The position numbers and the translations under genes are program-made. The notes below the pieces were generated by a model. It saw only the letters and a list, made by a program, of their open reading frames with translations, was not told the origin of the DNA and ran no database searches. A stretch of DNA of 64,000 nucleotides from Alphaproteobacteria bacterium (GTDB taxonomy: Bacteria > Pseudomonadota > Alphaproteobacteria > CAAHEQ01 > UBA3637), in contig JAFYRI010000012.1 in the NCBI GenBank assembly GCA_017559525.1, forward strand, positions 15,164-79,163. The letters are read 5' to 3'. Below, in pieces: positions 426-37,851 of this stretch; position 1 is the first letter of the stretch, and every line of letters begins with the position of its first letter.

Positions 426-520
426 ATAAAAATCCTTTGTCAGTTATTTTTGTTATTATATATTTTTTTGTTTAAAAGTACAAGAGAAAAAGAATATATT
501 TTTCGATGTCCGAAAAATCA

Positions 521-549
521 TTGACAAAAATAATGCAATATGATATAAT
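521..549 (+). promoter_or_regulatory. sigma70-type promoter (TTGACA-17 nt-TATAAT) upstream of the GNAT array
   Basis: Perfect consensus -35 TTGACA at 521-526 and -10 TATAAT at 544-549 with a 17-nt spacer. It lies inside the first track ORF, which argues for a downstream start at 581. Confidence 0.5.
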
Positions 550-580
550 TTTTCCACTATCTTATGCGAAAGGGAATTTG

Positions 581-1192
581 ATGATTGAAAATTTTGAAAT
601 GCCTTCTGAAATTAAAGGTAAGCGTATTTGTTTAAAGCGTGTAGAGGAAAATGATACAAATGCAATTAAAAAAGTTTGTGATGCAATTTTTAGCGAGGGA
701 ACACTAAAGCGAATTGAAAAAGTAATGGGATATTTTTCTGATGGACCTGATGATATTCCGTCTTTAGTTCGTTCTTTGAATCGTACATTTGAAAAAAATG
801 GTTTTAATTATTTTATTTTTAAAGATGATAAAGTTATTGGTCAAATTAATGGTTTCCCGTGTCAAGGTTATCAACGTTCAGTTGTGACGATTTGGGGATG
901 GATTTCTGATGCAGAAATGCGTAAAGGATATATGAAAGAGGCAATTAAGTTATTGGAAAATGAACATTTTTCAAGAAGTTTAATGTCTTTAGAAATTTCT
1001 GCTTATAATAATTTAGCGGTTCATGCTTTATGTCATTCTTTAAATTTTTATGGCGCGGGTGAAAGAACGCCTTATCAATATTTTTATCGCCATCGCTCTG
1101 ATTGGATGTCAGAACAAATGCCACAACGTATTATTCATCATGATGACATTAGTCAAGCTCATTCTCAGAAACAAAAGGGAGAACGTTCATAG
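581..1192 (+). CDS. GNAT family N-acetyltransferase (RimJ/RimL-like), paralog 1 of 5
   Basis: Shares motifs with the four downstream paralogs (R[IV]xLKR, W[IL]xxxxxGKGYM). Start chosen at MIENF, downstream of the promoter at 521-549. Confidence 0.6.
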   Translation: MIENFEMPSEIKGKRICLKRVEENDTNAIKKVCDAIFSEGTLKRIEKVMGYFSDGPDDIPSLVRSLNRTFEKNGFNYFIFKDDKVIGQINGFPCQGYQRSVVTIWGWISDAEMRKGYMKEAIKLLENEHFSRSLMSLEISAYNNLAVHALCHSLNFYGAGERTPYQYFYRHRSDWMSEQMPQRIIHHDDISQAHSQKQKGERS

Positions 1193-1789
1193 ATGTCTGT
1201 GATGTTCCGATATAATACAAATTGTTGGCCTGACAAACTTGTTGGGCCTCGTGTTGTATTAAAAAGATTGGAGCCAACACAAGAATATGCTGATTTATTT
1301 CACCAAATAATCAGCAATAATACAAAACATTTAACTGATAGTTTTGCTTATTTAGTGCATCAAATTAATTCATCGCAGGCTGCTTTGTCCTTTTTAACAG
1401 CCGCTTATCAAGATTTTCTTTATGAAGCGCGAGATGATTATGGTATTTTTGTCGGAAATGATTTTGTTGGTGCGGTTTTGGTTTGGGGAAAAAGACGCAC
1501 AGATCGTGAAATTATGTATTGGTTAAAAGAAGAAGCTTGTGGTTATGGTTATATGCATGATGCTTTGGATTTAATTGAACAAGAACATGCTAAATGTGCG
1601 CCTCATCATATTTTATTTGCTAATGTTAATGCTAAAGCAAGGGCTTCTGCAGCTTTATTAACAGCACGTGGTTATAATTTGGATGGACTTTTCTTTTTTA
1701 AACGACCAATGTCTAATGAATTGTCTCGAACGGTTATTCAGTCTGCGATGCATTCAATGCCGAAAGATGAGGGGCGAATATATGGATAA
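1193..1789 (+). CDS. GNAT family N-acetyltransferase, paralog 2
   Basis: PRVVLKRLEPTQEYA and YWLKEEACGYGYM motifs. The ATG follows the stop of paralog 1 immediately. Confidence 0.6.
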   Translation: MSVMFRYNTNCWPDKLVGPRVVLKRLEPTQEYADLFHQIISNNTKHLTDSFAYLVHQINSSQAALSFLTAAYQDFLYEARDDYGIFVGNDFVGAVLVWGKRRTDREIMYWLKEEACGYGYMHDALDLIEQEHAKCAPHHILFANVNAKARASAALLTARGYNLDGLFFFKRPMSNELSRTVIQSAMHSMPKDEGRIYG

Positions 1790-2354
1790 AATATTAAGGT
1801 CAAATCGTATTCGCTTAGAAATTTTGTCACCATTGCCGGAATATGCCGAACAATTGTCTGAAATTATTTGTCGTAACCGAGATCATTTAGACATGTGGCG
1901 AGGTGATGTTTTAAAATATGAAACATCCGAGTTATCGTTTTATAAATTGTTAATGGATAATTACTATTATGAACGTAAAGAAGGATATTTTTATCATATT
2001 TTTAAAGGTAAAAAAATTATTGGCCATATCAGTTTGTTGTCTTCTGGTAAATTTTGGGAAACATCTTATTGGTTAGATAAAGAATATACAGGACAAGGGT
2101 ATATGCGAGAGGCTTTAAAAACCTTGGAAAATGCTTGGTTTCAAAAAAGTACAGCGCCTATTACTGTTCTTATAAATCCCGAAAATACACCTTCTTTGAA
2201 AGTTATTCATAAAATGGGATATACTTTGTTTGGGCAGAACAGATATTTGAAAAATTTTGCTATGTTTATGAGGGAACAAAATGTACATCAACCATCATTA
2301 ATTATGTCAGCAAATCAACAAATTTTTACACAAAATCAACATGAGAAGGATTAA
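1782..2354 (+). CDS. GNAT family N-acetyltransferase, paralog 3
   Basis: Start at MDKILRSNRIRLEIL overlaps the stop of paralog 2 by 8 nt (translational coupling). YWLDKEYTGQGYM motif. Confidence 0.6.
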   Translation: MDKILRSNRIRLEILSPLPEYAEQLSEIICRNRDHLDMWRGDVLKYETSELSFYKLLMDNYYYERKEGYFYHIFKGKKIIGHISLLSSGKFWETSYWLDKEYTGQGYMREALKTLENAWFQKSTAPITVLINPENTPSLKVIHKMGYTLFGQNRYLKNFAMFMREQNVHQPSLIMSANQQIFTQNQHEKD

Positions 2355-2356
2355 AG

Positions 2357-2923
2357 ATGATACCATATCCAACCGTAATAGAAGGAACTCGTATTGTGTT
2401 GAAAATGTTATCTCCAACACCGACAAACGCACAAATGGTTTGTGATTTGGTGAAAAAAAATACAATGTATTTATATCCTTTTTTGAAAGAAGTGGTAACT
2501 GATGGTAAAGATGTATTAAATGCCTTACATCACTTGCGTCGGGCTGATAATTTATGTCGAGAAGATGATACGGCATTGTATTATATTTTTCATCAAGGAA
2601 AAATGGTTGGCGCAATTGAGGCTTTGATGTATCCTCATGAACGGGAGTTGCGTTTTTGGTTGGATCATGATGCAAAAGGTAAAGGATTGATGCGTGAAGC
2701 TGTTTTATTGATGGAAAAGATGTTATTTGAACGTAATCAAGATAGAATTATTTTAGGAATTTTAGATAGCAATACGCCATCACTTAAACTTGCAAAGCGA
2801 TTAGGATATACTGAAGATTGGGAAGGTTATTTCGAAATAACATATGATAAATTTCATATGTTAAGAAAAAATAATTCAAGAAAAAGTTTAACTAATTTAT
2901 ATGATCGAACAAATGGTAGATAA
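2357..2923 (+). CDS. GNAT family N-acetyltransferase, paralog 4
   Basis: TRIVLKMLSPTPTNA and FWLDHDAKGKGLM motifs. Confidence 0.6.
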   Translation: MIPYPTVIEGTRIVLKMLSPTPTNAQMVCDLVKKNTMYLYPFLKEVVTDGKDVLNALHHLRRADNLCREDDTALYYIFHQGKMVGAIEALMYPHERELRFWLDHDAKGKGLMREAVLLMEKMLFERNQDRIILGILDSNTPSLKLAKRLGYTEDWEGYFEITYDKFHMLRKNNSRKSLTNLYDRTNGR

Positions 2924-2935
2924 AGGAAGTATATA

Positions 2936-3517
2936 ATGTATCCTAGTAGAATTATAGGACGAAATATTGAGTTGAAAATTTTACCGGCAACTGAGGAAAA
3001 TGCTGAAAAGGTTTATTATGTTATTCAAAATAATAAAGAATATTTGTCTCAATTTTTTCAACGATTGGTTTCAGCTTTTGATAATAAAAAACAGGCATTA
3101 GATATTTTAAAATTTGATGAAGAACAAAGATGGCTTAATAATTCTGTAAATTATTATATTTTTTCAAAGAATCAGTTGATTGGTGAGATTGCTGCCGATT
3201 GGTCTAGGCAAAATAGTAGAGCTTCTATTATTTATTGGCTGGATAAATCTCATGTTGGAAAAGGATATATGTCTCAAGCTTTGAAAATGATGGAAAAGAA
3301 CCTGTTTTTAAATGGGTATTCTGAAACGCGTTTGTATATTGATGCTGCCAATTGGCGTTCTGTAAATGTTGCAAAATACAATTACTATCAATTAAGTGAT
3401 GATGGTAATTATTATTTTAAAACACGTCAAATGTATAATAATCCTCGTCAACCAATATGCCATAAACAAGATTATATTGGACGTTTTTGTCGTTTGTTTC
3501 GGACGCGAAATAGATAA
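2936..3517 (+). CDS. GNAT family N-acetyltransferase, paralog 5
   Basis: RNIELKILPATEENA and YWLDKSHVGKGYM motifs. Confidence 0.6.
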   Translation: MYPSRIIGRNIELKILPATEENAEKVYYVIQNNKEYLSQFFQRLVSAFDNKKQALDILKFDEEQRWLNNSVNYYIFSKNQLIGEIAADWSRQNSRASIIYWLDKSHVGKGYMSQALKMMEKNLFLNGYSETRLYIDAANWRSVNVAKYNYYQLSDDGNYYFKTRQMYNNPRQPICHKQDYIGRFCRLFRTRNR

Positions 3518-15718: not shown

Positions 15719-16500
15719 TATGCGTTTCCACGATAAAATTGTTTAATCATACCTAATACGTTTTCATCCATAAAGCGATTGGCATATGAAGCAATGTGCT
15801 GTGGAATAGGGTGACGCATTTCAGCTAATCCTCCAGCCATACAAGCCAAAGTATCGCTATCGCCTCCAATAGATACAGCATTGCGTATGGCGTCTACATA
15901 AGAATCTGCCTCTAATGCACAACAAATGGCTTCTGGTACAGTTTTTTCACATGAACAATAAAAATGATTGTAATGTTGACGGATTTTAAGGATAGGTCTG
16001 CTTAGATTGTACCAGTATTTATTTGCAATATGTTGTCTGATTTTGGGGGTTGGTTCGTTTTCTTTTAACATAAAACCCGTTTCAATATAAGCTTGAACCG
16101 CGTTTAAACTTTCTGGATGATTATGTGTTGTTTTTGTTATTTCAATTGCTTTTTCAAAAGCCTCATCTTTATCTTTTAGATGAAGCAGTGGACTGATACG
16201 CATTACACATCCGTTTGATTTAGATTGCAATGATGAGCCCGTTTTTAACCAATTCATAAATGCACTGCCAAATGGGGCAATTTGACCATTTTCATAAGTG
16301 CGATCAATATACATTTTTCCCCATTTTTTTAAGAAAAATTCTGGCTTACCGCCTTGCATTAACCAATCTGCAGTAGCACAAGTTAAAATTGTGTCATCTG
16401 TAAAACATGATTCGTTACAAAACAAAGGAAAATCTTTTGTTTTGATGTTATGAAATTCATAAACCGAACCAATAATATCTCCGATAATAGCGCCTTGCAT
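15718..16500 (-). CDS. ADP-ribosylglycohydrolase family protein (ARH/DraG/YegU-like)
   Basis: N-terminal GAIIGDIIGSVYEF and C-terminal IGGDSDTLACMAGG, diagnostic ARH motifs. Confidence 0.8.
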   Translation of the reverse strand: MQGAIIGDIIGSVYEFHNIKTKDFPLFCNESCFTDDTILTCATADWLMQGGKPEFFLKKWGKMYIDRTYENGQIAPFGSAFMNWLKTGSSLQSKSNGCVMRISPLLHLKDKDEAFEKAIEITKTTHNHPESLNAVQAYIETGFMLKENEPTPKIRQHIANKYWYNLSRPILKIRQHYNHFYCSCEKTVPEAICCALEADSYVDAIRNAVSIGGDSDTLACMAGGLAEMRHPIPQHIASYANRFMDENVLGMIKQFYRGNA

Positions 16501-16632
16501 ATTCTTTTCTCCTAATTAAGGCCAAGATTATAGCATATTTTTTTATTAAAATCAATTTTTAAATCGATGTATTTTTTTACTTGCTTTTTTATTGCTCTTG
16601 ACGTACAACTGCGAAAAAAGGAGTTTACAACA

Positions 16633-18183
16633 ATGCGATTATTTTCCCTGATGTTTTTATCATTAATGCTATTGAATGGATGTGATAGTCAACTGACACC
16701 ATTAACAATTGTTCATACAAATGATGTGCATGCGCATTTATTGCCATCGGATGCTAAATTACAAGATTGTGATGCGGATAATGCAGTCTGTTTTGGTGGA
16801 TATGCACGTATTAAATCGGTTATTGATGGCGTTCGTCAAACATCTGATAATGTAGTTGTCTTGGATGCCGGAGATCGTTTTTCTGGTACGGTATTTTATA
16901 CATTGCGTAAATCTCAAGATGTAACACTTCTTACCGAACAAATCGGATATGATGTTTTGACTTTGGGAAATCATGAATTTGATGATGGGTTAGGGGAGTT
17001 ATTTAAATTTGTTCAAGGTATTTCGGCGCCAATCGTTTCGGCAAATATTTCATTTCCGACACATACTCAGTTAAATGAACGTATTGTTCCATCTGTTGTT
17101 TTAAATAAAAATGGTTTAAAAATCGGCGTTATTGGTGCCTTAAGTGAAGAAACCAAATTAGAAACATCAAAGGCAAAGGAAATTGATATTAATGAAGTTA
17201 TTCCCGCAGTTCGCCGAGAAGCAGAAAAACTGACACATCAAGGCGTTAAGGTATTAATTGCTTTAACGCATATTGGGATAGAGGCTGATAAAAACTTAGC
17301 GAGAGCTGTTCCAGAATTGGACATTATTGTCGGGGGGCATACTCATACATTGTTGTCCAATAATCATGAAGAAGATGCAGCGTATGGTCCGTATCCGATT
17401 GTAATATCTGGAACAAAAAATACCAAAACATTGATTGTGACATCTGGTATTGGTGGTCATTATTTGGGGATATTAAATACGGTATTTGATAAAAAGGGAT
17501 GTATTGTATCTTATACAGGAGATACTATTCGTTTGGACGAAACAGTCGTTCCGAATGCAACGATGGAAGAATCTGTTGCGGCGGTTCAACAATCCATTGA
17601 TACAATTATTAATGAACCAATTTTACATATTAACCAAGATATCTATTTAACGAACAATGGAAAATATTGTTCTGAATCTTGCTATGTTGGTGAATTTTTA
17701 ACAGACATGTTAAAAGAGGTCGCACCAGATGCCGATATTATATTGTTGAATGCTGGAGGTATTCGGGCCGCTTTACCAAAGGGGCAAATTGCTTTTAAAC
17801 ATATTGCATCAGCATATCCATTTGATTCAGTCGGTGTATTGGTTCAAATGACGGGGGCAGAGTTAAAATCATACTTAGAACATGGTTTGAAAAAGTATTT
17901 GTCAAATGATAGAACAAATGCGTTCTTGCAAATTGGCGGTGGTACATATCAATTTTCGTCTGATACCAAAACAGTTACAAATGTAAAGGTTAAAGGTATT
18001 CCCGTTCAAGATGATAAAATATATGCCGTTTTAATACCATCTTTTATGGCCGGTGGCGGAGATGGCTTCCCGGAAAAAGAAGCCATAAAAACGTATGATT
18101 TAACGATACGGGATATGATTATTTCGGCCATGAAACAACCTGGAGTGATAGTTAAATCATTTGAAAATCGTGTAAAAAAATAA
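16633..18183 (+). CDS. lipoprotein bifunctional metallophosphatase/5'-nucleotidase (UshA-like)
   Basis: Lipobox LLNGCD. VHTNDVHAHL and GNHEFD metallophosphoesterase motifs. C-terminal 5'-nucleotidase domain. Start set at MRLFSL after RBS AAGGAG. Confidence 0.8.
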   Translation: MRLFSLMFLSLMLLNGCDSQLTPLTIVHTNDVHAHLLPSDAKLQDCDADNAVCFGGYARIKSVIDGVRQTSDNVVVLDAGDRFSGTVFYTLRKSQDVTLLTEQIGYDVLTLGNHEFDDGLGELFKFVQGISAPIVSANISFPTHTQLNERIVPSVVLNKNGLKIGVIGALSEETKLETSKAKEIDINEVIPAVRREAEKLTHQGVKVLIALTHIGIEADKNLARAVPELDIIVGGHTHTLLSNNHEEDAAYGPYPIVISGTKNTKTLIVTSGIGGHYLGILNTVFDKKGCIVSYTGDTIRLDETVVPNATMEESVAAVQQSIDTIINEPILHINQDIYLTNNGKYCSESCYVGEFLTDMLKEVAPDADIILLNAGGIRAALPKGQIAFKHIASAYPFDSVGVLVQMTGAELKSYLEHGLKKYLSNDRTNAFLQIGGGTYQFSSDTKTVTNVKVKGIPVQDDKIYAVLIPSFMAGGGDGFPEKEAIKTYDLTIRDMIISAMKQPGVIVKSFENRVKK

Positions 18184-18208
18184 ATTAAAAATAATTACTA
18201 ATCAAAAA

Positions 18209-18251
18209 AAATCGGTCAAAAACAAGAAAAACTTGCGACCGATTTTTTTTT
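18209..18251 (+). terminator. putative terminator after the 5'-nucleotidase gene
   Basis: ATCGGTC ... GACCGAT stem followed by T9. Confidence 0.4.
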
Positions 18252-18296
18252 GCCCTATACTGATTATATCGTTAATATTTTATAGGAGGTATATCC

Positions 18297-18662
18297 ATGA
18301 AAAAATTATTATTCTTCTTATCATTAGTTGTTTGTGTAGGTTTTTCAAGTGCTGTAAGTGCACAGTATGTGGAACGTGGTGGATTTAAAGATCCAGCAAC
18401 AATCGTTAATACTGTTTCTGAATTAAAACATATGCAAGATGATTCTTATGTAGTATTGGAAGGTAAAATAGAAAAACGCCTTGCTAAAGAGGAATATTTA
18501 TTTTCGGATGCCAGTGGTTCAATTACTGTTGAAATAGATGATGATGAATGGCGTGGGGTTGAAGTTGGACCTCAAGACACTGTTGAAATTATCGGTGAAT
18601 TGGATAAAGGTATTTTTTCCGATGAAATCGATGTCAAACAAGTCCGATTACTCAAAAAATAA
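18297..18662 (+). CDS. YgiW/YdeI (BOF) family periplasmic OB-fold stress protein
   Basis: Signal peptide. Pattern VxLEGKIEKRL..EEYLFSDASGSITVEIDDDEW...DTVEIIGELDK typical of BOF proteins. Confidence 0.75.
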   Translation: MKKLLFFLSLVVCVGFSSAVSAQYVERGGFKDPATIVNTVSELKHMQDDSYVVLEGKIEKRLAKEEYLFSDASGSITVEIDDDEWRGVEVGPQDTVEIIGELDKGIFSDEIDVKQVRLLKK

Positions 18663-31033: not shown

Positions 31034-32194
31034 ATGAATTTTAAAATAGAAACCGGTCGTTCTATGGTTGAAATGTTAGGCGTTTTAGCCATTATCGGTG
31101 TACTATCTATCGGAGGTATCACAGGTTATTCTTATGGAATGGATAAATACCGTGCCAATCAAACAATTAATGATATTATGCTCAGAGCTGTAGACTTAAT
31201 GACACAAGCCAGTCAAGGACGAGACGCATTATCATTAGATGAATGGATTAATGAACCTTTTGTCTATGATTTTTCTAATCCGGCATATTCTGATGATGAT
31301 CTTGGACTTATTATGTTTGATGTGGGAGCCAACAACAAAATTTCTCAACGAGTTTGCGAAATGGTTTATGATGGATTATCTAATTCCGTAATTCAAATAG
31401 ATATTAATGAACAAGTCTCTAACTCTAAAAATGATTGTGCCTCAGACAATACGATGACTTTTTACTTCGAAGGTGGTCGTGTTAATGAACAAGGTGAGTT
31501 AATTTGTGAACCTGCATGTGGTGAAGGGGAACAGTGTGCAAATGGTTTTTGTTTTAGAGAGGATATCCCTGTCGTAACTAAAATGTATGGTAACAATTGC
31601 TCTAGTGATGCCGATTGCGGAGGCTGTGGAGATTGCCTTTATAACGGACAATGTATGCCTACTAGGGAAGGAGTTGATTGTCCTTTAGACAATGGACAAA
31701 CTGGACAATGTAATAATGGACAATGTTTGGCTAAAGAGGGATGTTCAGATAAAAATCCTTGTCAATCAAGTGGAACATATTGTGCCAGTCCGAATTCCAG
31801 TTGTTCTGTTGCCTTTAATGAAAATGAAACGGGGATTTGTATACAACCCGATTTTGTGACACAAAAAGTTAATGGTAAAGTATATTATGTTTCAAATGGA
31901 CGTTTATCATGGTGGGATGCAAAATCTGCCTGTGAAATAATCAATAGAGAAATGATTAGCGTGAATGATGTGGTTGTTGGATGGAATCAAACTGCCTCTA
32001 ATTCTTTTGAACGAACAGAATTAGGATTGGCTTTAAATTCTATTATAGGGCACGGTATTTATGTGTGGATGGAAGAAAAAGATGATTGTTATGCATGGAC
32101 TTTTACTCCTAATGATTGGGGAAATTATGATATTTCGAGTAAAGTTAAAAATAGAGCAACAGACGCCATACACTATATTGCAGTATGTAAATAG
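31034..32194 (+). CDS. type IV pilin-like protein fused to Cys-rich (EGF-like) modules and a C-terminal C-type-lectin-like domain
   Basis: N-terminus ETG/RSMVEMLGVLAIIGVLSIGGITGYSY. Middle carries many C..C..C spacings (CEPACGEGEQCANGFC, CNNGQC). C-terminus WWDAKSAC...YVWMEE...CYAW...AVCK resembles a CTLD. Confidence 0.55.
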   Translation: MNFKIETGRSMVEMLGVLAIIGVLSIGGITGYSYGMDKYRANQTINDIMLRAVDLMTQASQGRDALSLDEWINEPFVYDFSNPAYSDDDLGLIMFDVGANNKISQRVCEMVYDGLSNSVIQIDINEQVSNSKNDCASDNTMTFYFEGGRVNEQGELICEPACGEGEQCANGFCFREDIPVVTKMYGNNCSSDADCGGCGDCLYNGQCMPTREGVDCPLDNGQTGQCNNGQCLAKEGCSDKNPCQSSGTYCASPNSSCSVAFNENETGICIQPDFVTQKVNGKVYYVSNGRLSWWDAKSACEIINREMISVNDVVVGWNQTASNSFERTELGLALNSIIGHGIYVWMEEKDDCYAWTFTPNDWGNYDISSKVKNRATDAIHYIAVCK

Positions 32195-32246: not shown

Positions 32247-33254
32247 TTATCGGCAAAATACAACGTCTTTGACACGATTTAAGACAGGGGCCGCAATTTC
32301 TCTAGCACGTTTGGCGCCATCTTGCAACATATCTTCCACCTCATCAAAATGTGTCATATAATAATTATATTTTTCACGTTTTTCATCAATTTCTTCGTGC
32401 AAAGCGGCCAATAACATTTTCTTAATATCACCATATCCCATACCGCCTTGTTCTAAACCATTTTTAACCGTTTGAACAACATCATCTTTGGCAACACCTT
32501 TAATGATGTGATACAATAAAATGTCTTCTGGATTTTTCTTATCATTCAAACCTTGGCAGTCTGTCTTAATGCCCATAACGGCTTTTTTGAGAACGTTGTC
32601 TTCAGCGAACAAAGGAATAACGTTATTGTAGCTTTTGCTCATTTTTTGACCGTCTGTTCCCGGTAAGATTTGAGAGTTGACTTGTACTACATATTCTGGG
32701 ATTTTTAAAACCTCTTGTTTGTAGTGTGCATTAATGGAACCGGCAATATCGGCCGCAATTTCAACGTGTTGGATTTGGTCTTTACCAACGGGTACGATAT
32801 CTGTATCGTATGCTAAAATATCGGCAGCCATCAAAACAGGGTAGGTATATAACCCCATATTAATACCGGCATCATTTGGTTCGCCCTTTGCAGTGTTTTT
32901 ATCCACTTGCGCTTTATAGGCATGGGATTTATTCATCAATCCCTTAGGCGTATAAGCCATCAAAATAGTTGTCAGTTCAAATAATTCGGGCACATCGGAT
33001 TGTTTATAGAACAAAGATTGTTTTGGGTCTAATCCGCATGCTAAATACGTGCTGGCAATTTCTTTTGTTAATTGTTTGAGTAAAGGAGCATCTTTAATGG
33101 CATTGATGGCATGATAATCAGCCACAAACATAATATGACGACCGCCTTTTGCATTAATGTCATGACCTAATTGAATAGCTGGACGAATAGCGCCAACATA
33201 ATTCCCAAAGTGAACTGTTCCGGTGGGTTTAACTCCCGTTAAAATCGTTTTCAT
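32247..33254 (-). CDS. trpS: tryptophan--tRNA ligase
   Basis: TGVKPTGTVHFGNY (HIGH region). KMSKS as QKMSKSY. 335 aa. Confidence 0.9.
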   Translation of the reverse strand: MKTILTGVKPTGTVHFGNYVGAIRPAIQLGHDINAKGGRHIMFVADYHAINAIKDAPLLKQLTKEIASTYLACGLDPKQSLFYKQSDVPELFELTTILMAYTPKGLMNKSHAYKAQVDKNTAKGEPNDAGINMGLYTYPVLMAADILAYDTDIVPVGKDQIQHVEIAADIAGSINAHYKQEVLKIPEYVVQVNSQILPGTDGQKMSKSYNNVIPLFAEDNVLKKAVMGIKTDCQGLNDKKNPEDILLYHIIKGVAKDDVVQTVKNGLEQGGMGYGDIKKMLLAALHEEIDEKREKYNYYMTHFDEVEDMLQDGAKRAREIAAPVLNRVKDVVFCR

Positions 33255-33466
33255 TTTTTATTTCCTTTTTTGAATTTGTGTAAACATTTATGTGAAATTT
33301 TAAGCGTAACTAAAAGCCCCCTTGGGGAGGCCACAAATTCCAAACAAATTGTTTCATGTATATCATAAAGACTATTATAATTAAACTTTTTTTGAATATC
33401 AAGTACTTTTTTAGCAAAAAAAGCACTCTTAAAAAGAATGCTTTTAGTTTATAAAAGTAATAAATA

Positions 33467-34540
33467 TTAACGACCTCTATTTCTGCGACGATTGGAAGAG
33501 AGGGAACGTCTTTTTTTGCTAGAACCTTTTTTTGTATTTTTAGCTTTTGGCTTTTCTTTAACAATAGGTTTTCCATCTTTATCTATATTAAACATTTTTT
33601 GAAGTTCTTCTGGATATCCACCTGTTTCACGTTTTTTTAATTTAAATCCAGGCATGCTTCTTGGGGGACCAGAACGATATTTTAAGTTGTAAATATTAGC
33701 CCCAACCATGTATAATTCATTGACAACATTTTGTATTGTTATATTGTCGTTATTAGCTTGGGCCGTTGCTAGTTGTGTTAATAGTAATTTTGTTTTATGA
33801 CGTTTTACATTTCGTTTGCCATCAGCGCGTTCTTTTGTACTAACTTGTTTAGATAATAAGCTATATTTTTTATTTTTAACAGCTTTTAAAAAATTATGCC
33901 ATTTATTGATAAAGTTGTCTTGTCCAACTTGATATCCGATATCGACACTTAATATTTGAACTCCCCTAGGTTCTTTCATCAAGTCAATGCCTTTTTCAAT
34001 ATAAGCTCGACGATAAATAGTATCAATGACGTCACGAACTTCTGTTAATGCAATGCTGATGCTGTCTTTATATTTCATACCAGCAATTCCCATCGATTTT
34101 CCAAGTTGTTTAGCTGCTTCAAAAGATTTTGGAGATTTTGTTTTAACTGTAGATAGATAAGCGCTAACTTGTTCGGGTGTCATTTTTTCTCCATTTTCAT
34201 AATAAAGAGGAAAACGACTGAAGTCCATGCCATTTGTAGTAGCAATTCCATGGCCGATTGTTAAAACTCCTTTAGAACATATATATGCCCAGGGACAAAA
34301 ACCTTCTGAAATACCACTTACTCCAAGCAACCATGATTTACCTAATTTTTCACGCCAATTTTTATAAGTTTCCGTTTTCATAAACTCTATAACTTCTTCT
34401 TTATTCATAGGTAGAGTTGATTTTGTTTGAGTTATTTTAGCTTTTGATTTTGGTTTTGCTTCAACTTCGGATGTTGTTGCAAATGTTGCAACAGCAAAGC
34501 TAATGGCGGTTAATTGTCGGATTAGTGTTTTTAGACTCAT
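33467..34540 (-). CDS. secreted GH24-like (phage-type) lysozyme with an Arg/Lys-rich C-terminal tail
   Basis: Signal peptide. SEGFCPWAYICSKGVLTIGHG matches the T4/P22 lysozyme E..Y.D..G..TIG.G core, with Cys at the Asp position. The last 35 aa include KKGSSKKRRSLSSNRRRNRGR. Confidence 0.55.
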   Translation of the reverse strand: MSLKTLIRQLTAISFAVATFATTSEVEAKPKSKAKITQTKSTLPMNKEEVIEFMKTETYKNWREKLGKSWLLGVSGISEGFCPWAYICSKGVLTIGHGIATTNGMDFSRFPLYYENGEKMTPEQVSAYLSTVKTKSPKSFEAAKQLGKSMGIAGMKYKDSISIALTEVRDVIDTIYRRAYIEKGIDLMKEPRGVQILSVDIGYQVGQDNFINKWHNFLKAVKNKKYSLLSKQVSTKERADGKRNVKRHKTKLLLTQLATAQANNDNITIQNVVNELYMVGANIYNLKYRSGPPRSMPGFKLKKRETGGYPEELQKMFNIDKDGKPIVKEKPKAKNTKKGSSKKRRSLSSNRRRNRGR

Positions 34541-34692
34541 AAGCATGTCTCCATTTTTTTACTTTCTATTATATATTATATAATAAAAAATCAAAAATGA
34601 CAATTATGTTGTTTTAATATTATGAAAAATAATGGTTTTTGCGATTTTTTATTGCGTAATTTTTTGTTTGTTAGATGAATGTATTACATAGT

Positions 34693-35667
34693 CTAACCAC
34701 GTCTACCACGGCGTTTCCTTCTTGGATTTATCGGACGATTATTATTTCGTGGATTTTTCTTGATAGAAGGAGTAGGTGTTGTTTTTGGTCTGTAATCAAT
34801 ATTAGCTGCAATAAATATGTCTTTATACAAATCAGATGCATCAAATTTGATATTAAATTTTCCTAATGTTGCTAAGTGTGCAGAAGTATCTGTTCCTTTT
34901 TTGCAAGAGTTTGCTAAGTGAACTAATGATCTTTTTACAGTATTGCGAGATTTATTAGGGCAACATACAACATATCTATGTGCATTTTCATAATCTTTGT
35001 TTTTTAAACATTTCCATAAGGCAGCATTTCTGAAAACACCATCTTGTCCACGTTGATATGTTAAATCCAAAATCAACATTTGAATAGGGAGAGGTTGGTC
35101 AAATAATTCCATGCCATGTTTACTCAACATTTTATCATGAACTAAATCAACTTTTAATTTAGCTTCTTTGTGTGCTAAATGTTCTGCATCTGCATGAGAA
35201 ATACCTCGATATCCTAATTCATTAGCTAAACGACGACATTCTGATTTGTTTTTTCCTGCAGTTTTATTCATCCAGCTTTTTATTTCTGAAACTGTTAATC
35301 GTCTGCCACTTTTTGTGTATAGAGGCATATCATATAAAGGAATGCTACAGGCAACCATATTTGTGCCAATCCCTACAGTTGGTTTTCCAGCAGAACATCT
35401 GTAGATATAAGGAAAGTATCCTTCTGATAACTCACACATAGGCATCCATGCATTTAACAGACGTGTTCTGAGAAGGTTATATTCAGATGTTTTCTTAAAG
35501 TCAGGTGTGCCACGTAAGTTAGAATCCATTTTAGGTGCATTTGGATGATTTGCCACACTTTGTGTTGATGAAAATACAGGAACATTATCCTCTTGTGTTG
35601 TTGCATTACATGCAATGTTAAAAAATACTGAGCTTAAGATAGCTAAATGTTGTAATGTTTTATTCAT
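34693..35667 (-). CDS. secreted GH24-like lysozyme paralog with an Arg-rich C-terminal tail
   Basis: Signal peptide. SEGYFPYIYRCSAGKPTVGIG core, again Cys at the Asp position. Tail NNRPINPRRKRRGRRG. GGGAG RBS. Confidence 0.55.
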   Translation of the reverse strand: MNKTLQHLAILSSVFFNIACNATTQEDNVPVFSSTQSVANHPNAPKMDSNLRGTPDFKKTSEYNLLRTRLLNAWMPMCELSEGYFPYIYRCSAGKPTVGIGTNMVACSIPLYDMPLYTKSGRRLTVSEIKSWMNKTAGKNKSECRRLANELGYRGISHADAEHLAHKEAKLKVDLVHDKMLSKHGMELFDQPLPIQMLILDLTYQRGQDGVFRNAALWKCLKNKDYENAHRYVVCCPNKSRNTVKRSLVHLANSCKKGTDTSAHLATLGKFNIKFDASDLYKDIFIAANIDYRPKTTPTPSIKKNPRNNNRPINPRRKRRGRRG

Positions 35668-35878
35668 TTGTACTCTCCCAATGTATATCTATAAAAGATT
35701 ATATATTATTTTTGAAAAAAAATCAATGATTTTTATTTAATGCATTGTTTTTAATGGTAAAAATATTTTTTTGTGTGAGGTATTAATAACATATTTTGTG
35801 GGATAAAAAATAAAAATTTGTAAAAACACTTGCAAAATAAAAAAAAGATTTTTAAAATCATCAAAAAAGGAGTGAGAA

Positions 35879-36046
35879 ATGATAGGGCAAGCATTAGAAA
35901 TCACGCTTATTGGCATGGGAACAGTTTTCTTTTTTTTGCTGGTATTAATTTGTGTTTTGAATATTTTACGTATATGTACGGTTAAAGGAAAGCGAGATTT
36001 ATCTAAAATTGCTGCAGCCATTGCATTTATAAAAAGTAAGGAGTAG
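35879..36046 (+). CDS. oadG: oxaloacetate decarboxylase gamma subunit (55 aa, absent from the ORF track)
   Basis: RBS AAAGGAG. MIGQALEITLIGMGTVFFFLLVLI single-TM peptide typical of OadG. Stops 5 nt before oadA. Confidence 0.55.
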   Translation: MIGQALEITLIGMGTVFFFLLVLICVLNILRICTVKGKRDLSKIAAAIAFIKSKE

Positions 36047-36051
36047 GGGAA

Positions 36052-37851
36052 ATGGTCAAAAAGGGTAAAAAGAAAATATCCTATATGTGTACGGCATTTC
36101 GTGATGGATTTCAATCTGTGTTTGGTGCCCGTGTCTTGTCAAAAGATTATATGCCAGTGGTAGCTGAAGCAGTTAAGGCTGGTATGACGAATATTGAAGC
36201 TGGTGGTGGGGCATCATTTCAAGCTGCTTTTTTCTATAACAATGAAAATGCTTTTGATGTAATGGATGAATTTCGCAGGGTTTGTGGTCCAAAAGTGAAT
36301 TTGCAAACGCTTGCACGTGGTGTGAATGTTGTGGCTCTTGATTCTCAAAGTTCTAAGATGATTGATTTGCATGCTAAAATGTTTAAAAAACATGGCATGA
36401 GTACTATTCGGAACTTTGATGCTTTGAATGATCCAAATAACTTAATTTTTAGTGCAAAATGTATTAAAAAAGCCGGATTAAAGCATCAATTATGTGTGTC
36501 TATGATGTCATTGCCTCCGGGATGCGAAGGTGCTCATACACCTGACTTTTATGAAGAAACACTCAAAAAATTTATTAAAGCTAAAATTCCGTTTGATTCG
36601 TTGTGTTTTAAAGACGCTTCCGGTACAACGGTTCCGGCGGTTGTGTACGAAACAATAAGACGTGCCAGAAAATTGGTAGGTGATAAAGTCCCATTGGAAT
36701 TCCATTCGCATGAAACAGCCGGTGCTGGATTGGCTTGTTATATGGCTGCTGTTGATGGTGGTGCCGATATTGTGGATTTATCCTTGGCACCTGTATCCGG
36801 CGGTACATGTCAACCGGATGTGGCAACGATGTGGCATGCTTTACGTGGAACGGATTTTGAATTAGATTGTGATATCGATGCGATTATGCGTGTAGAAGAT
36901 CATCTTAAAGATGCGCTTTCTGATTACTTTATGCCCCCTGAAGCTTTACATGTTGAACCGCAAATTCCTTGGTCCCCAATGCCAGGGGGGGCTTTGACAG
37001 CTAATACGCAAATGCTTAGAGATAACGGCTTGATGGATAAATATGGTGAAATTATTAAGGCGATGGAAGAAGTGGTCCGTAAGGGTGGTTTTGGTACTTC
37101 CGTGACACCGGTATCTCAATTTTATTTCCAACAAGCATTTAACAATGTGATGAGCGGTCCGTGGAATAAAATCGCCGATGGTTATGGTAAAATGGTATTG
37201 GGTTATTTTGGTAAAACACCTGTCGCTCCGGATAAGAAGGTGGTCAAAATTGCCTCTGAACAATTGGGATTAAAGCCAACGACTAAGAGTGTTTTGGAAA
37301 TTAATGATAAGAATGAGAAAAAATCTCGTAAACATTATGAAAATATGTTGAAAGAAGCCGGTTTGCCGATTACAGATGAAAATGTGTTTATTGCGGCTGC
37401 TTGTGGGGATAAGGGAATTACATTCTTACTTGGTAAAGCCAAAGTTGGTGTGCGTTATAAAGAAAAACAAGCATCATCTACACCGAAACAAGATACATAT
37501 AAAATTACAGTATCCGGTGAAACATTTGATGTCAAGTTAAATGGTAATACGGCAACAGTAAATGGTGTAGATTATCAGGTATCACTAGATGATGCTGTGG
37601 CACAAATATCTGCTGTTCCAGCTCAAACCACAGGTGTAGCACAAACAATTAACGCCGGTACACCGGGGACAATTACGCAAGTGCTTGTTAAATCAGGTGA
37701 TGTAGTTAAATCTGGTCAAACATTATGTGTGATTGAAGTGATGAAAATGGAAACAGAGGTCAAGGCTTTGTCTGATGTAACTATTACAAATGTTTTTGCA
37801 ACAAAAGGGGAACAGGTGGTCGCAGGCCAAAAACTGTTTGAGGTCAAATGA
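36052..37851 (+). CDS. oadA: oxaloacetate decarboxylase alpha subunit (carboxyltransferase plus biotin carrier domain)
   Basis: N-terminal pyruvate-carboxyltransferase TIM-barrel domain. C-terminal biotinyl domain with [12 protein letters not shown] (AMKM biotin attachment motif). Confidence 0.85.

Follow-up and report, generated by a model that had tools for sequence, protein, structure and literature searches.

What is the role of two neighbouring lysozyme-like genes, A and B, in a 64-kb window (the whole stretch of DNA analysed, 64,000 nt) that consists of housekeeping genes throughout? Both ORFs lie on the minus strand, A at 33467-34540(-) and B at 34693-35667(-), as a sequence-only reading of this DNA had reported while quoting their motif and tail strings exactly. 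The two proteins are 26% identical over 224 aa (E = 1e-23) and are therefore paralogues.

Fold and catalytic motif

Profile comparisons and structure prediction assign both A and B to the GH24/T4-lysozyme (T4L) fold with an E/C/T register. Neither protein reached the Pfam gathering cut-off of PF00959, the family that includes T4 lysozyme, P22 lysozyme and DLP12 RrrD (A, 14.4 bits and B, 15.0 bits against 22.3), and the N-terminal motif region alone was aligned. NCBIfam gave no match for A or B, and PDB searches with either single sequence returned nothing meaningful. In a profile search of the PDB, residues 7-35 and 100-152 of T4L were matched colinearly, with the Cys falling on position 20; the best PDB match of the family profile was 1QTZ, the T4L D20C mutant, and the PHROG 7 endolysin family was matched with E values of 2.8e-4 and 3.3e-3. 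The predicted folds of both proteins have the two lobes of T4L. When the core profile was compared with a single T4L sequence in hhalign, the register came out correctly but the probability was only 15%; the fold assignment therefore rests on the predicted folds and on profile searching of the whole library.

Searching 1.84 billion proteins with the core profile A2 retrieved 253 at E ≤ 1e-3, which form a gradient from exported relatives of 300-400 aa to lysozymes of 130-200 aa. The PF00959 cut-off was passed by 10 of 10 short matches tested, PF00959 was matched by 16 of 29 intermediate relatives from the wider family, and 9 of these 29 matched the Pesticin C-terminal model; many wider relatives bear twin-arginine signals. 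A further homologue search with a broad alignment recovered almost solely members that were already known. Compared with T4 lysozyme and PF00959, A and B have a core of ~240 aa instead of ~150 aa, add export signals, a C-terminal extension and a polybasic tail, form a paralogous pair in the core chromosome, and lack pairwise similarity to any sequenced phage (no tblastn match in 50,697 phage genomes; no match in an IMG/VR scan). From their sequences we regard them as a modestly novel, highly divergent GH24 subfamily and architecture whose function we infer. If correct, this would be a subfamily missed by the current Pfam and NCBIfam models, and its description would aid the annotation of gut Alphaproteobacteria MAGs.

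The motif E-x8-C-x5-T is invariant in 22 of 22 family members, and in the family profile it lines up with T4L E11/20/T26; the placement of the Cys at the Asp20 position, proposed in the sequence-only reading, was borne out by this alignment. In A the motif is E79-x8-C88-x5-T94-x-G-x-G (EGFCPWAYICSKGVLTIGHG; 34247..34306(-)), made of invariant columns, and in B it is E82-x8-C91-x5-T97-x-G-x-G (EGYFPYIYRCSAGKPTVGIG; 35365..35424(-)), with E82, G83, Y89, T97 and G101 invariant. Across the alignment of 22 sequences the Glu, Tyr, Cys, Thr and glycines do not vary. Because both proteins keep the full set of Glu (T4L E11), Tyr (Y18), Cys at the Asp20 position and Thr (T26), as well as the C-lobe cleft residues (a D/N-x-x-Y/F-Q-x-G motif and the equivalent of T4L Arg145), they are predicted to be active peptidoglycan glycosidases whose triad is of the well-known Cys type.

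The same reading had taken this Cys as a possible sign of non-canonical catalysis, which the published and retrieved sequences do not support. The family triad is described as E-8aa-D/C-5aa-T (PMC4640515; PMC3556154), and P1 Lyz has the triad E42/C51/T57 with Cys51 as a catalytic residue (PMC3556154), which we confirmed in the sequence of 1XJT. D20C/A are the sole substitutions reported to keep activity and are well represented among natural sequences (bioRxiv 10.1101/418723). Position 20 was Cys in 62 and Asp in 66 of the relatives retrieved here, a few wider relatives had Arg, Lys or Gly at this site, and Asp and Cys alternated within the family in a neighbour-joining tree (without support values). 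The Cys is thus a common natural variant, and the exchange itself matters little, being an already documented natural alternative to Asp.

Export signals and domain architecture

Gene A (MAG locus tag IKV03_05805; 33467..34540(-)) encodes a predicted exported GH24-like lysozyme of 357 aa. The ORF can be extended by two codons to 34546; translation most likely begins at the second ATG (34540, MSLK...), because this is the start in 10 of 10 orthologues and in the annotation of the MAG at NCBI, and a GGAG lies 7-8 nt upstream. The N-terminal signal (residues 1-28, MSLKTLIRQLTAISFAVATFATTSEVEA followed by K; 34457..34540(-)) contains a hydrophobic stretch (maximum 12-aa Kyte-Doolittle value, 1.9) and V-E-A at positions -3 to -1. 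Its pattern in the orthologues is MSLK..L.QLS..G.A.T.LFA, with a hydrophobic segment rich in Ser, Gly, Ala and Thr that precedes a putative signal-peptidase site, and a low-complexity linker of ~80 aa separates this segment from the lysozyme domain. By these features A is predicted to be exported with a Sec-type signal. The folded core (residues 45-290; 33671..34408(-)) is predicted to be T4L-like with an extra region of ~60 aa. The C-terminal extension that follows (residues 291-330; 33551..33670(-)) is conserved in A orthologues as KLKKR..GGFP...MFNID..G.PIV, has no Pfam match and was modelled with low confidence (pLDDT 54-73). Alignment and charge counts define the polybasic tail as residues 331-357, ending in ...KKGSSKKRRSLSSNRRRNRGR (33470..33550(-)).

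Gene B (MAG locus tag IKV03_05810; 34693..35667(-)) encodes a predicted lipoprotein-type exported GH24-like lysozyme of 324 aa. Its signal peptide, read from the sequence, covers residues 1-20 and has a lipobox-like end, ...FFNIAC (35608..35667(-)). Lipoboxes follow the PROSITE-style rule [LVI..][ASTVI][GAS]-Cys. The lipobox Cys is invariant in 11 of 11 B-family members, and the B orthologues (n = 10) fit the rule with S-V-A-C, S-F-A-C or S-V-S-C (pattern [VST][VIF][AS]C); the N-I-A-C of B in the window departs from it slightly, its Asn at -3 lying outside (NIAC|N, against SVAC|N in orthologues). As the N-terminus ends in an invariant Cys in a lipobox-like context, the signal of B appears to be of the lipoprotein type and not plain Sec. 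The earlier claim of Sec signal peptides in both proteins therefore holds in that both are of exported type and A is of Sec type, and has to be amended for B. The folded core of B (residues ~50-298; 34774..35520(-)) shows two T4L-like lobes in its model, plus an insertion and, at the C-terminal end, a short helical extension, and its polybasic tail (residues 299-324, TPSIKKNPRNNNRPINPRRKRRGRRG, net +11; 34696..34773(-)) is predicted to be disordered (pLDDT < 50).

Apart from the catalytic Cys, the only Cys in A is C82 at E+3, and 8 of 10 A orthologues have exactly two; the E+3 Cys is a candidate caging partner. P1 Lyz is caged by a C44-C51 disulfide (PMC3556154). Like P1 Lyz and other SAR endolysins, A and B combine a Cys at the T4L-Asp20 position with an N-terminal hydrophobic export segment, and the second Cys near the Glu, at E+3 in A, is at E+2 in P1 Lyz. 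Unlike P1 Lyz, A has no third, activating Cys in its N-terminal segment; SAR endolysins have a weakly hydrophobic signal-anchor-release segment immediately next to the catalytic domain; A orthologues differ further from them by the long linker described above, and B differs by its lipoprotein-type signal.

Polybasic C-termini

The last 20 residues of the tails have a net charge of +7 to +10. Among the 73 window ORFs of at least 100 aa, only A and B reach a net charge of at least +7 in this segment, so the tails are no compositional accident. The tails of A orthologues average +8.4 and those of B orthologues +7.4, compared with an average of +2.2 for ordinary GH24 matches, and the mature proteins have a pI of ~10 with net charges of +36 (A) and +24 (B). 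The end motifs are conserved far more than the linker before the tail. The motif of A is Q[KR]RRR[GS]G[GS]R in orthologues (for example, RRRGGGR) and RRSG[SG]R in relatives at ~30% identity, and that of B is [KR]RxRR[GA]R[HRN]G-COOH, with orthologues finishing in ...RRGRHG or ...RARRG. The strongly cationic tails that the sequence-only reading had singled out are thus a conserved property of the family.

The tails probably hold A and B on anionic wall or membrane polymers, and a role in permeabilising the outer membrane is a minority candidate. Several sorting signals were considered and rejected. A general sorting tag is contradicted by the finding that no other window ORF has such a tail, although other exported-type proteins are encoded there. 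PEP-CTERM, GlyGly-CTERM and LPXTG-type signals expect a hydrophobic helix ahead of the basic cluster, and none precedes the Arg cluster here. Type IV secretion substrates, some of which would present an Arg-rich C-terminal signal, are recognised in the cytoplasm, and A and B have Sec or lipoprotein-type signals.

Locus, origin and role

The gene pair sits between oadGAB and trpS. The order oadGAB, B, A, trpS, with oadGAB pointing away from the pair and B and A pointing towards trpS, is kept in three relatives (L001, L004 and L010); in L010 the pair is only ~26-31% identical, and locus and order are constant in relatives at 60% and at ~30% identity. A scan of genome contigs found three loci, every one from ruminant-gut Alphaproteobacteria MAGs; the taxonomic spread beyond these three loci consists of metagenome proteins, and one wider relative (P0025) is labelled Alphaproteobacteria as well. 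No phage gene was found anywhere in the 64-kb window, and the earlier statement that no holin, spanin or other phage gene lies near the pair extends to the loci of the relatives. Neither the window nor these loci contain a small adjacent gene fit to encode an immunity protein, and the window shows no secretion system, no type III, IV or VI genes and no sign of a host-delivery system. Promoter-like sites lie upstream of B (TTGATT-17-TATAAT, 10/12 consensus match only; 35698..35726(-)) and of A (TTGTCA-17-TATAAT, 11/12 consensus match only; 34575..34603(-)), and an intrinsic-terminator-like hairpin with a 12-bp stem and a U-run stands immediately 3' of the A stop codon (33414..33445(-); fold -12.9 kcal/mol, z -3.2). 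Rfam gave no match in 33000-36200. Other window genes encode an endonuclease I of exported type, a 5'-nucleotidase and a pilin-like protein.

Most likely, A and B encode exported T4-type lysozymes and, after an ancient domestication, settled long ago as ordinary genes of the chromosome. We give a probability of about 0.5 to the fuller reading that an ancient duplication gave rise to them and that they have been passed on vertically, as chromosomal genes for exported GH24 muramidases, in a clade of uncultured low-GC Alphaproteobacteria from the ruminant gut, with a role on the cell's own wall and with tails as anchors. This reading builds on the observed fold, register, export-type N-termini, sequence conservation, tail conservation and non-phage context; enzymatic activity, the self-wall substrate and the binding partner of the tails are what we infer, and the housekeeping role is read from genomic context alone. 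A would be a soluble protein exported via its Sec-type signal and B a lipoprotein on a flexible tether of ~28 residues, and the two would cut glycan strands of the cell that makes them as its wall grows or is turned over or as cells separate. Their disordered polybasic C-termini would stand in for a canonical wall-binding domain by anchoring the proteins electrostatically to anionic envelope polymers, namely peptidoglycan carboxylates, LPS and acidic phospholipids. Slt70 and MltA-E of Gram-negative bacteria are likewise soluble and lipid-anchored glycan-strand enzymes, a likeness by analogy only. SpmX sets a precedent: in it, Alphaproteobacteria have domesticated a phage GH24 domain and pass it on vertically (bioRxiv 10.1101/418723). 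If our reading is correct, A and B would be the second independent example, after SpmX, of a phage-type GH24 lysozyme made into a stable chromosomal function in this class, here with the catalytic machinery intact and the gene duplicated into soluble and lipid-anchored forms.

In an unlikely alternative, A and B are antibacterial lysins that leave the producer by secretion, in vesicles or by lysis and attack Gram-negative neighbours; like a natural 'artilysin', each would use its tail to displace LPS divalent cations and to bring the muramidase through the outer membrane. The tails combine an extreme net charge (+8 to +11) with conservation, and their resemblance to the membrane-active ends of some endolysins favours this alternative; we know of no housekeeping murein hydrolase that pairs so extreme a net charge with a conserved motif at its very C-terminus. 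A and B have intact catalytic residues, and endonuclease I, the 5'-nucleotidase and the pilin-like protein would fit a scavenging or contact lifestyle. However, exported peptidoglycan-degrading toxins normally require an immunity gene, and none adjoins the pair, which, unlike Pesticin and lysozyme-like bacteriocins, is flanked by oadG and trpS. A and B also differ from those bacteriocins in having only a signal and a short linker instead of an N-terminal receptor-binding or translocation domain, and the Pesticin matches of wider relatives reflect merely the common T4L fold. The lipoprotein-type signal of one paralogue and the Tat signals of many relatives suggest periplasmic residence, and the absence of a secretion system from the 64 kb, the fixed housekeeping locus and the deep vertical inheritance argue against this alternative as well.

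[quoted passage not shown] But SpmX has the attenuating substitution D20L/R, relaxed T26 and Y18, and C-terminal transmembrane segments, whereas A and B keep the triad with E, Y, C and T invariant in the 22 sequences and have no such segments, and a Cys at position 20 is reported to keep the enzyme active (bioRxiv 10.1101/418723). An equally doubtful joint proposal is that the C-terminal end motifs form a new functional signal, either a sorting or export tag or a polycationic peptide that translocates itself through the outer membrane, and that A is caged by a P1-Lyz-like disulfide, C82(E+3)-C88(E+9), and becomes active only under reducing conditions, such as those of the anoxic gut lumen. In the active-like model the two Cys of A flank one beta-strand, so that bonding would be expected to distort the active site.

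It is very improbable that the genes are remnant endolysins of a decayed prophage that survived by chance. SAR endolysins, of which P1 Lyz is one (PMC3556154), typically pair a GH24 Cys triad with a hydrophobic segment at the N-terminus, but they belong to a phage lysis cassette (holin or pinholin, spanins), and A and B have housekeeping neighbours only in 64 kb free of phage genes. Their ORFs are intact, each with its own promoter-like site, phage genomes and viral contigs hold no relatives, and the synteny among close and distant relatives effectively refutes this origin. The idea that the tails are eukaryotic nuclear-localisation signals of host-directed effectors, raised in the sequence-only reading, is hardly credible, since it has only the likeness of KKRR/RRKRR stretches to classical NLS motifs in its favour and stands against a lysozyme fold whose peptidoglycan-cleaving residues are intact, export signals of Sec, lipoprotein or Tat type instead of a host-translocation signal, a window without type III, IV or VI genes, and a source in MAGs from ruminant gut contents.

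Engineered endolysins are given polycationic tails for crossing Gram-negative outer membranes, and the natural polyarginine ends of A and B are of practical interest as a possible lead for this reason.

Family assignment of the paralogous lysozyme-like genes

Genes A and B are neighbouring minus-strand genes, B being an ORF of 324 aa (34693-35667) and A having a longest ORF of 359 aa (33467-34546). In all orthologues and in the NCBI annotation, A starts two codons inside this ORF at MSLK (34540), with GGAG 7-8 nt upstream of the start codon. The two proteins are paralogues (26% identity, E 1e-23), identical to the hypothetical proteins IKV03_05805 (A) and IKV03_05810 (B) of an 'Alphaproteobacteria bacterium' MAG, and the motif and tail strings quoted in the sequence-only reading match the ORFs exactly. 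Among 5.8 billion clustered proteins, about 10 orthologues each were found for A and B at 50-66% identity, none of them with an informative name; a scan of species-representative genomes confined the relatives to ruminant-gut Alphaproteobacteria MAGs (roe deer cecum, sheep rectum). The window copy of A has 357 aa versus 422-443 aa in all other A orthologues (P0002-P0010), and is missing (at 34408-34457) a low-complexity, Pro/Thr/Gln-rich linker of ~65-85 aa that separates the signal peptide from the lysozyme domain in the others.

Individually, A and B scored 14.4 and 15.0 bits against Pfam Phage_lysozyme (PF00959), below the cut-off of 22.3; an NCBIfam search gave no match, and PDB searches with either single sequence were unsuccessful. 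Despite these sub-threshold scores, the evidence at the family level is consistent. A profile of 22 A/B sequences had T4 lysozyme (T4L) as its best PDB target (top entry 1QTZ, the D20C mutant), with two colinear matches (T4L 7-35 and 100-152) in which T4L E11, position 20 and T26 align with the invariant Glu, Cys and Thr, respectively, so that the catalytic register proposed from sequence held. A Tyr at E+7 (T4L Y18), an Arg at the place of T4L R145 and the D-x-x-Y-Q-x-G motif of the C-lobe were likewise invariant or nearly so. From 1.84 billion representatives, the trimmed core profile retrieved 253 proteins at E<=1e-3, of which 24 reached E<=1e-10; they form a gradient from 300-400-aa relatives to ordinary 130-200-aa lysozymes; the PF00959 cut-off was passed by all 10 short matches tested, and 16 of 29 intermediate relatives matched this family. 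The AlphaFold cores are confident as models (pLDDT ~85-96 over residues 45-285 of A and 88-98 over residues 50-290 of B). A and B thus very probably have the GH24 lysozyme fold and belong to this family.

Cysteine at the catalytic position

The Asp-to-Cys change had been taken as a mark of non-canonical catalysis, an idea that does not hold. The motif published for the family already allows either residue, as E-8aa-D/C-5aa-T (PMC4640515; PMC3556154). P1 Lyz has the triad E42/C51/T57, as confirmed on the deposited 1XJT sequence. T4 and P22 lysozymes keep activity only with D20C/A substitutions, and these residues are well represented among natural sequences (Randich et al., bioRxiv 10.1101/418723). 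Cys and Asp were about equally frequent at position 20 (62 and 66, respectively) in the 130 relatives retrieved in which the motif could be recognised; in relatives of at most 220 aa the counts were 42 Cys and 20 Asp. The two residues alternate several times within the subfamily in a rough NJ tree without support values, and both paralogues of the distant syntenic pair at locus L010 carry Asp. Three Tat-signal proteins of the wider subfamily from outside the window (P0043, P0049 and P0141) have Arg, Lys or Gly at this position, which suggests, at the sequence level, attenuated or inactive copies in some lineages.

Besides the catalytic Cys, A carries another at E+3; in 8 of its 10 orthologues the total Cys count is exactly two. 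The catalytic Cys51 of P1 Lyz stays disulfide-bonded to Cys44 (E+2) until activation (PMC3556154). The two Cys of A lie on either side of one beta-strand (82-87) in the AlphaFold model, so a disulfide between them would need a distorted, presumably inactive site. A P1-Lyz-like inactivating disulfide in A is offered as a hypothesis only; unlike A, P1 Lyz has a third, activating Cys.

Export, polybasic tails and proposed role

Sec signals had been assigned to both proteins. This stood for A, with its conserved export-type hydrophobic N-terminal segment followed by V-E-A|K, but not for B: its signal, like that of every B orthologue, ends in an invariant Cys whose context resembles a lipobox, which makes B a putative lipoprotein. 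A disordered linker of ~28 residues follows this Cys, and Asn at -3 in the window copy is a slight departure from the lipobox rule. Twin-arginine signals occur in many of the wider relatives, and the subfamily as a whole is predicted to be extracytoplasmic.

Only A and B, 2 of the 73 window ORFs of at least 100 aa, have a net charge of at least +7 over the last 20 residues. Since no other window protein ends in such a tail, it does not serve as a sorting tag for exported proteins at large within the set covered here. The mean charge over these residues was +8.4 in A orthologues, +7.4 in B orthologues, +4.4 in the wider subfamily and +2.2 in ordinary GH24 matches. The extreme ends are conserved in sequence as well as charge: the A-type end is Q[KR]RRR[GS]G[GS]R, recognisable as RRSG[SG]R at ~30% identity, and the B-type end is mostly R[GA]R[HRN]G. 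Both tails are disordered by prediction, and the mature proteins have a pI of ~10. The C-terminal sorting signals PEP-CTERM, GlyGly-CTERM and LPXTG need a hydrophobic helix; the ends of A and B have none, and these identities were rejected.

The gene order at the locus is oadG-oadA-oadB (divergent), B, A and trpS. It is retained in relatives at ~60% identity (L001 and L004) and in L010, whose lysozyme-like P0027 and P0023 share no more than ~26-31% identity with the window proteins; a Tat-type relative lies between recN and unrelated chromosomal genes. Every ORF scanned in the 64 kb (minimum length 120 aa) was either housekeeping or unknown, with no secretion system and no phage-like gene among them, bearing out the earlier statement that no phage gene lies nearby. 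Searches of 50,697 phage genomes and of IMG/VR yielded no relatives. Minus-strand promoter-like sites lie upstream of A (11/12 consensus match) and B (10/12), and a strong terminator-like hairpin directly 3' of A. The synteny, housekeeping context, lack of phage relatives and own promoter-like and terminator-like sites therefore indicate an old, vertically inherited chromosomal pair.

We propose, with a probability of about one half, that A and B act on the cell's own wall, A as a soluble and B as a lipid-tethered exported muramidase, with the polybasic tails providing electrostatic anchoring to anionic envelope polymers. A housekeeping role is favoured by synteny that reaches distant relatives, by catalytic residues that are all intact, by the occurrence of lipoprotein and Tat forms, and by the absence of a gene that could encode an immunity protein. 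The main rival, considered unlikely, makes A and B bacteriolytic enzymes directed outwards, with tails that breach the outer membranes of the cells they attack. SpmX-like attenuation fits the data poorly and is distinctly improbable. A prophage remnant, scarcely credible, was rejected on the locus order kept down to ~26-31% identity and the lack of phage relatives; a host effector using the tails as nuclear-localisation signals, which the sequence-only reading said they resemble, fits as poorly and is the least probable of all.

Neither the T4L/GH24 fold nor the Cys triad is new, and domestication of GH24 in Alphaproteobacteria is known as well. New are a divergent, unannotated GH24 subfamily that scores below current model thresholds, its enlarged lysozyme core plus C-terminal extension, the conserved core-genome tandem pair of soluble protein and lipoprotein, and the conserved polyarginine C-terminal motif.

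A candidate trpS leader and other features

Between gene A and trpS (tryptophanyl-tRNA synthetase) lies a candidate minus-strand leader element (33310-33410). A near-consensus promoter-like TTGATA-17-TATAAT (11/12) precedes a short leader ORF ending in W-N-L-W-P-P-Q-G-G-F-stop, whose last codons are overlapped by a GC-rich hairpin with a U-run (33315-33332) ~55 nt upstream of trpS. The element has no Rfam match and is absent from L010, whose corresponding gap measures 18 nt. Its counterparts (L001:10440-10597; L004:9345-9503) are 83% identical in DNA, in relatives whose proteins are ~60% identical, and both Trp codons are in frame in their leader ORFs (MIYNLHSTWNLWPPQGGI and MMYFAQMTWNLWPPKGGF, each followed by a stop). 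From its sequence, the element looks like a Trp-codon leader-peptide attenuator of trpS.

A plus-strand gene (31034-32194) encodes a 386-aa protein without a Pfam match. Its N-terminus is type IV pilin/pseudopilin-like (G|RSMVEMLGVLAIIGVLS), its middle region is rich in Cys, and its C-terminus bears a weak resemblance to a C-type lectin domain (best PDB match CD23, E 0.09); gene content at this position varies between relatives (94 + 243 aa in L001, 715 + 245 aa in L004). Within the part of the window that is lowest in G+C (24.5-26% at 12001-14000, versus ~35% elsewhere) lies a minus-strand 513-aa ORF (12246-13787) that has no Pfam match. Five GNAT-family acetyltransferase genes stand in consecutive tandem on the plus strand (506-3517). 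A cluster encoding endonuclease I, ADP-ribosylglycohydrolase, a 5'-nucleotidase/metallophosphoesterase and a BOF (OB-fold) protein (14972-18662) may be a nucleic-acid scavenging set.
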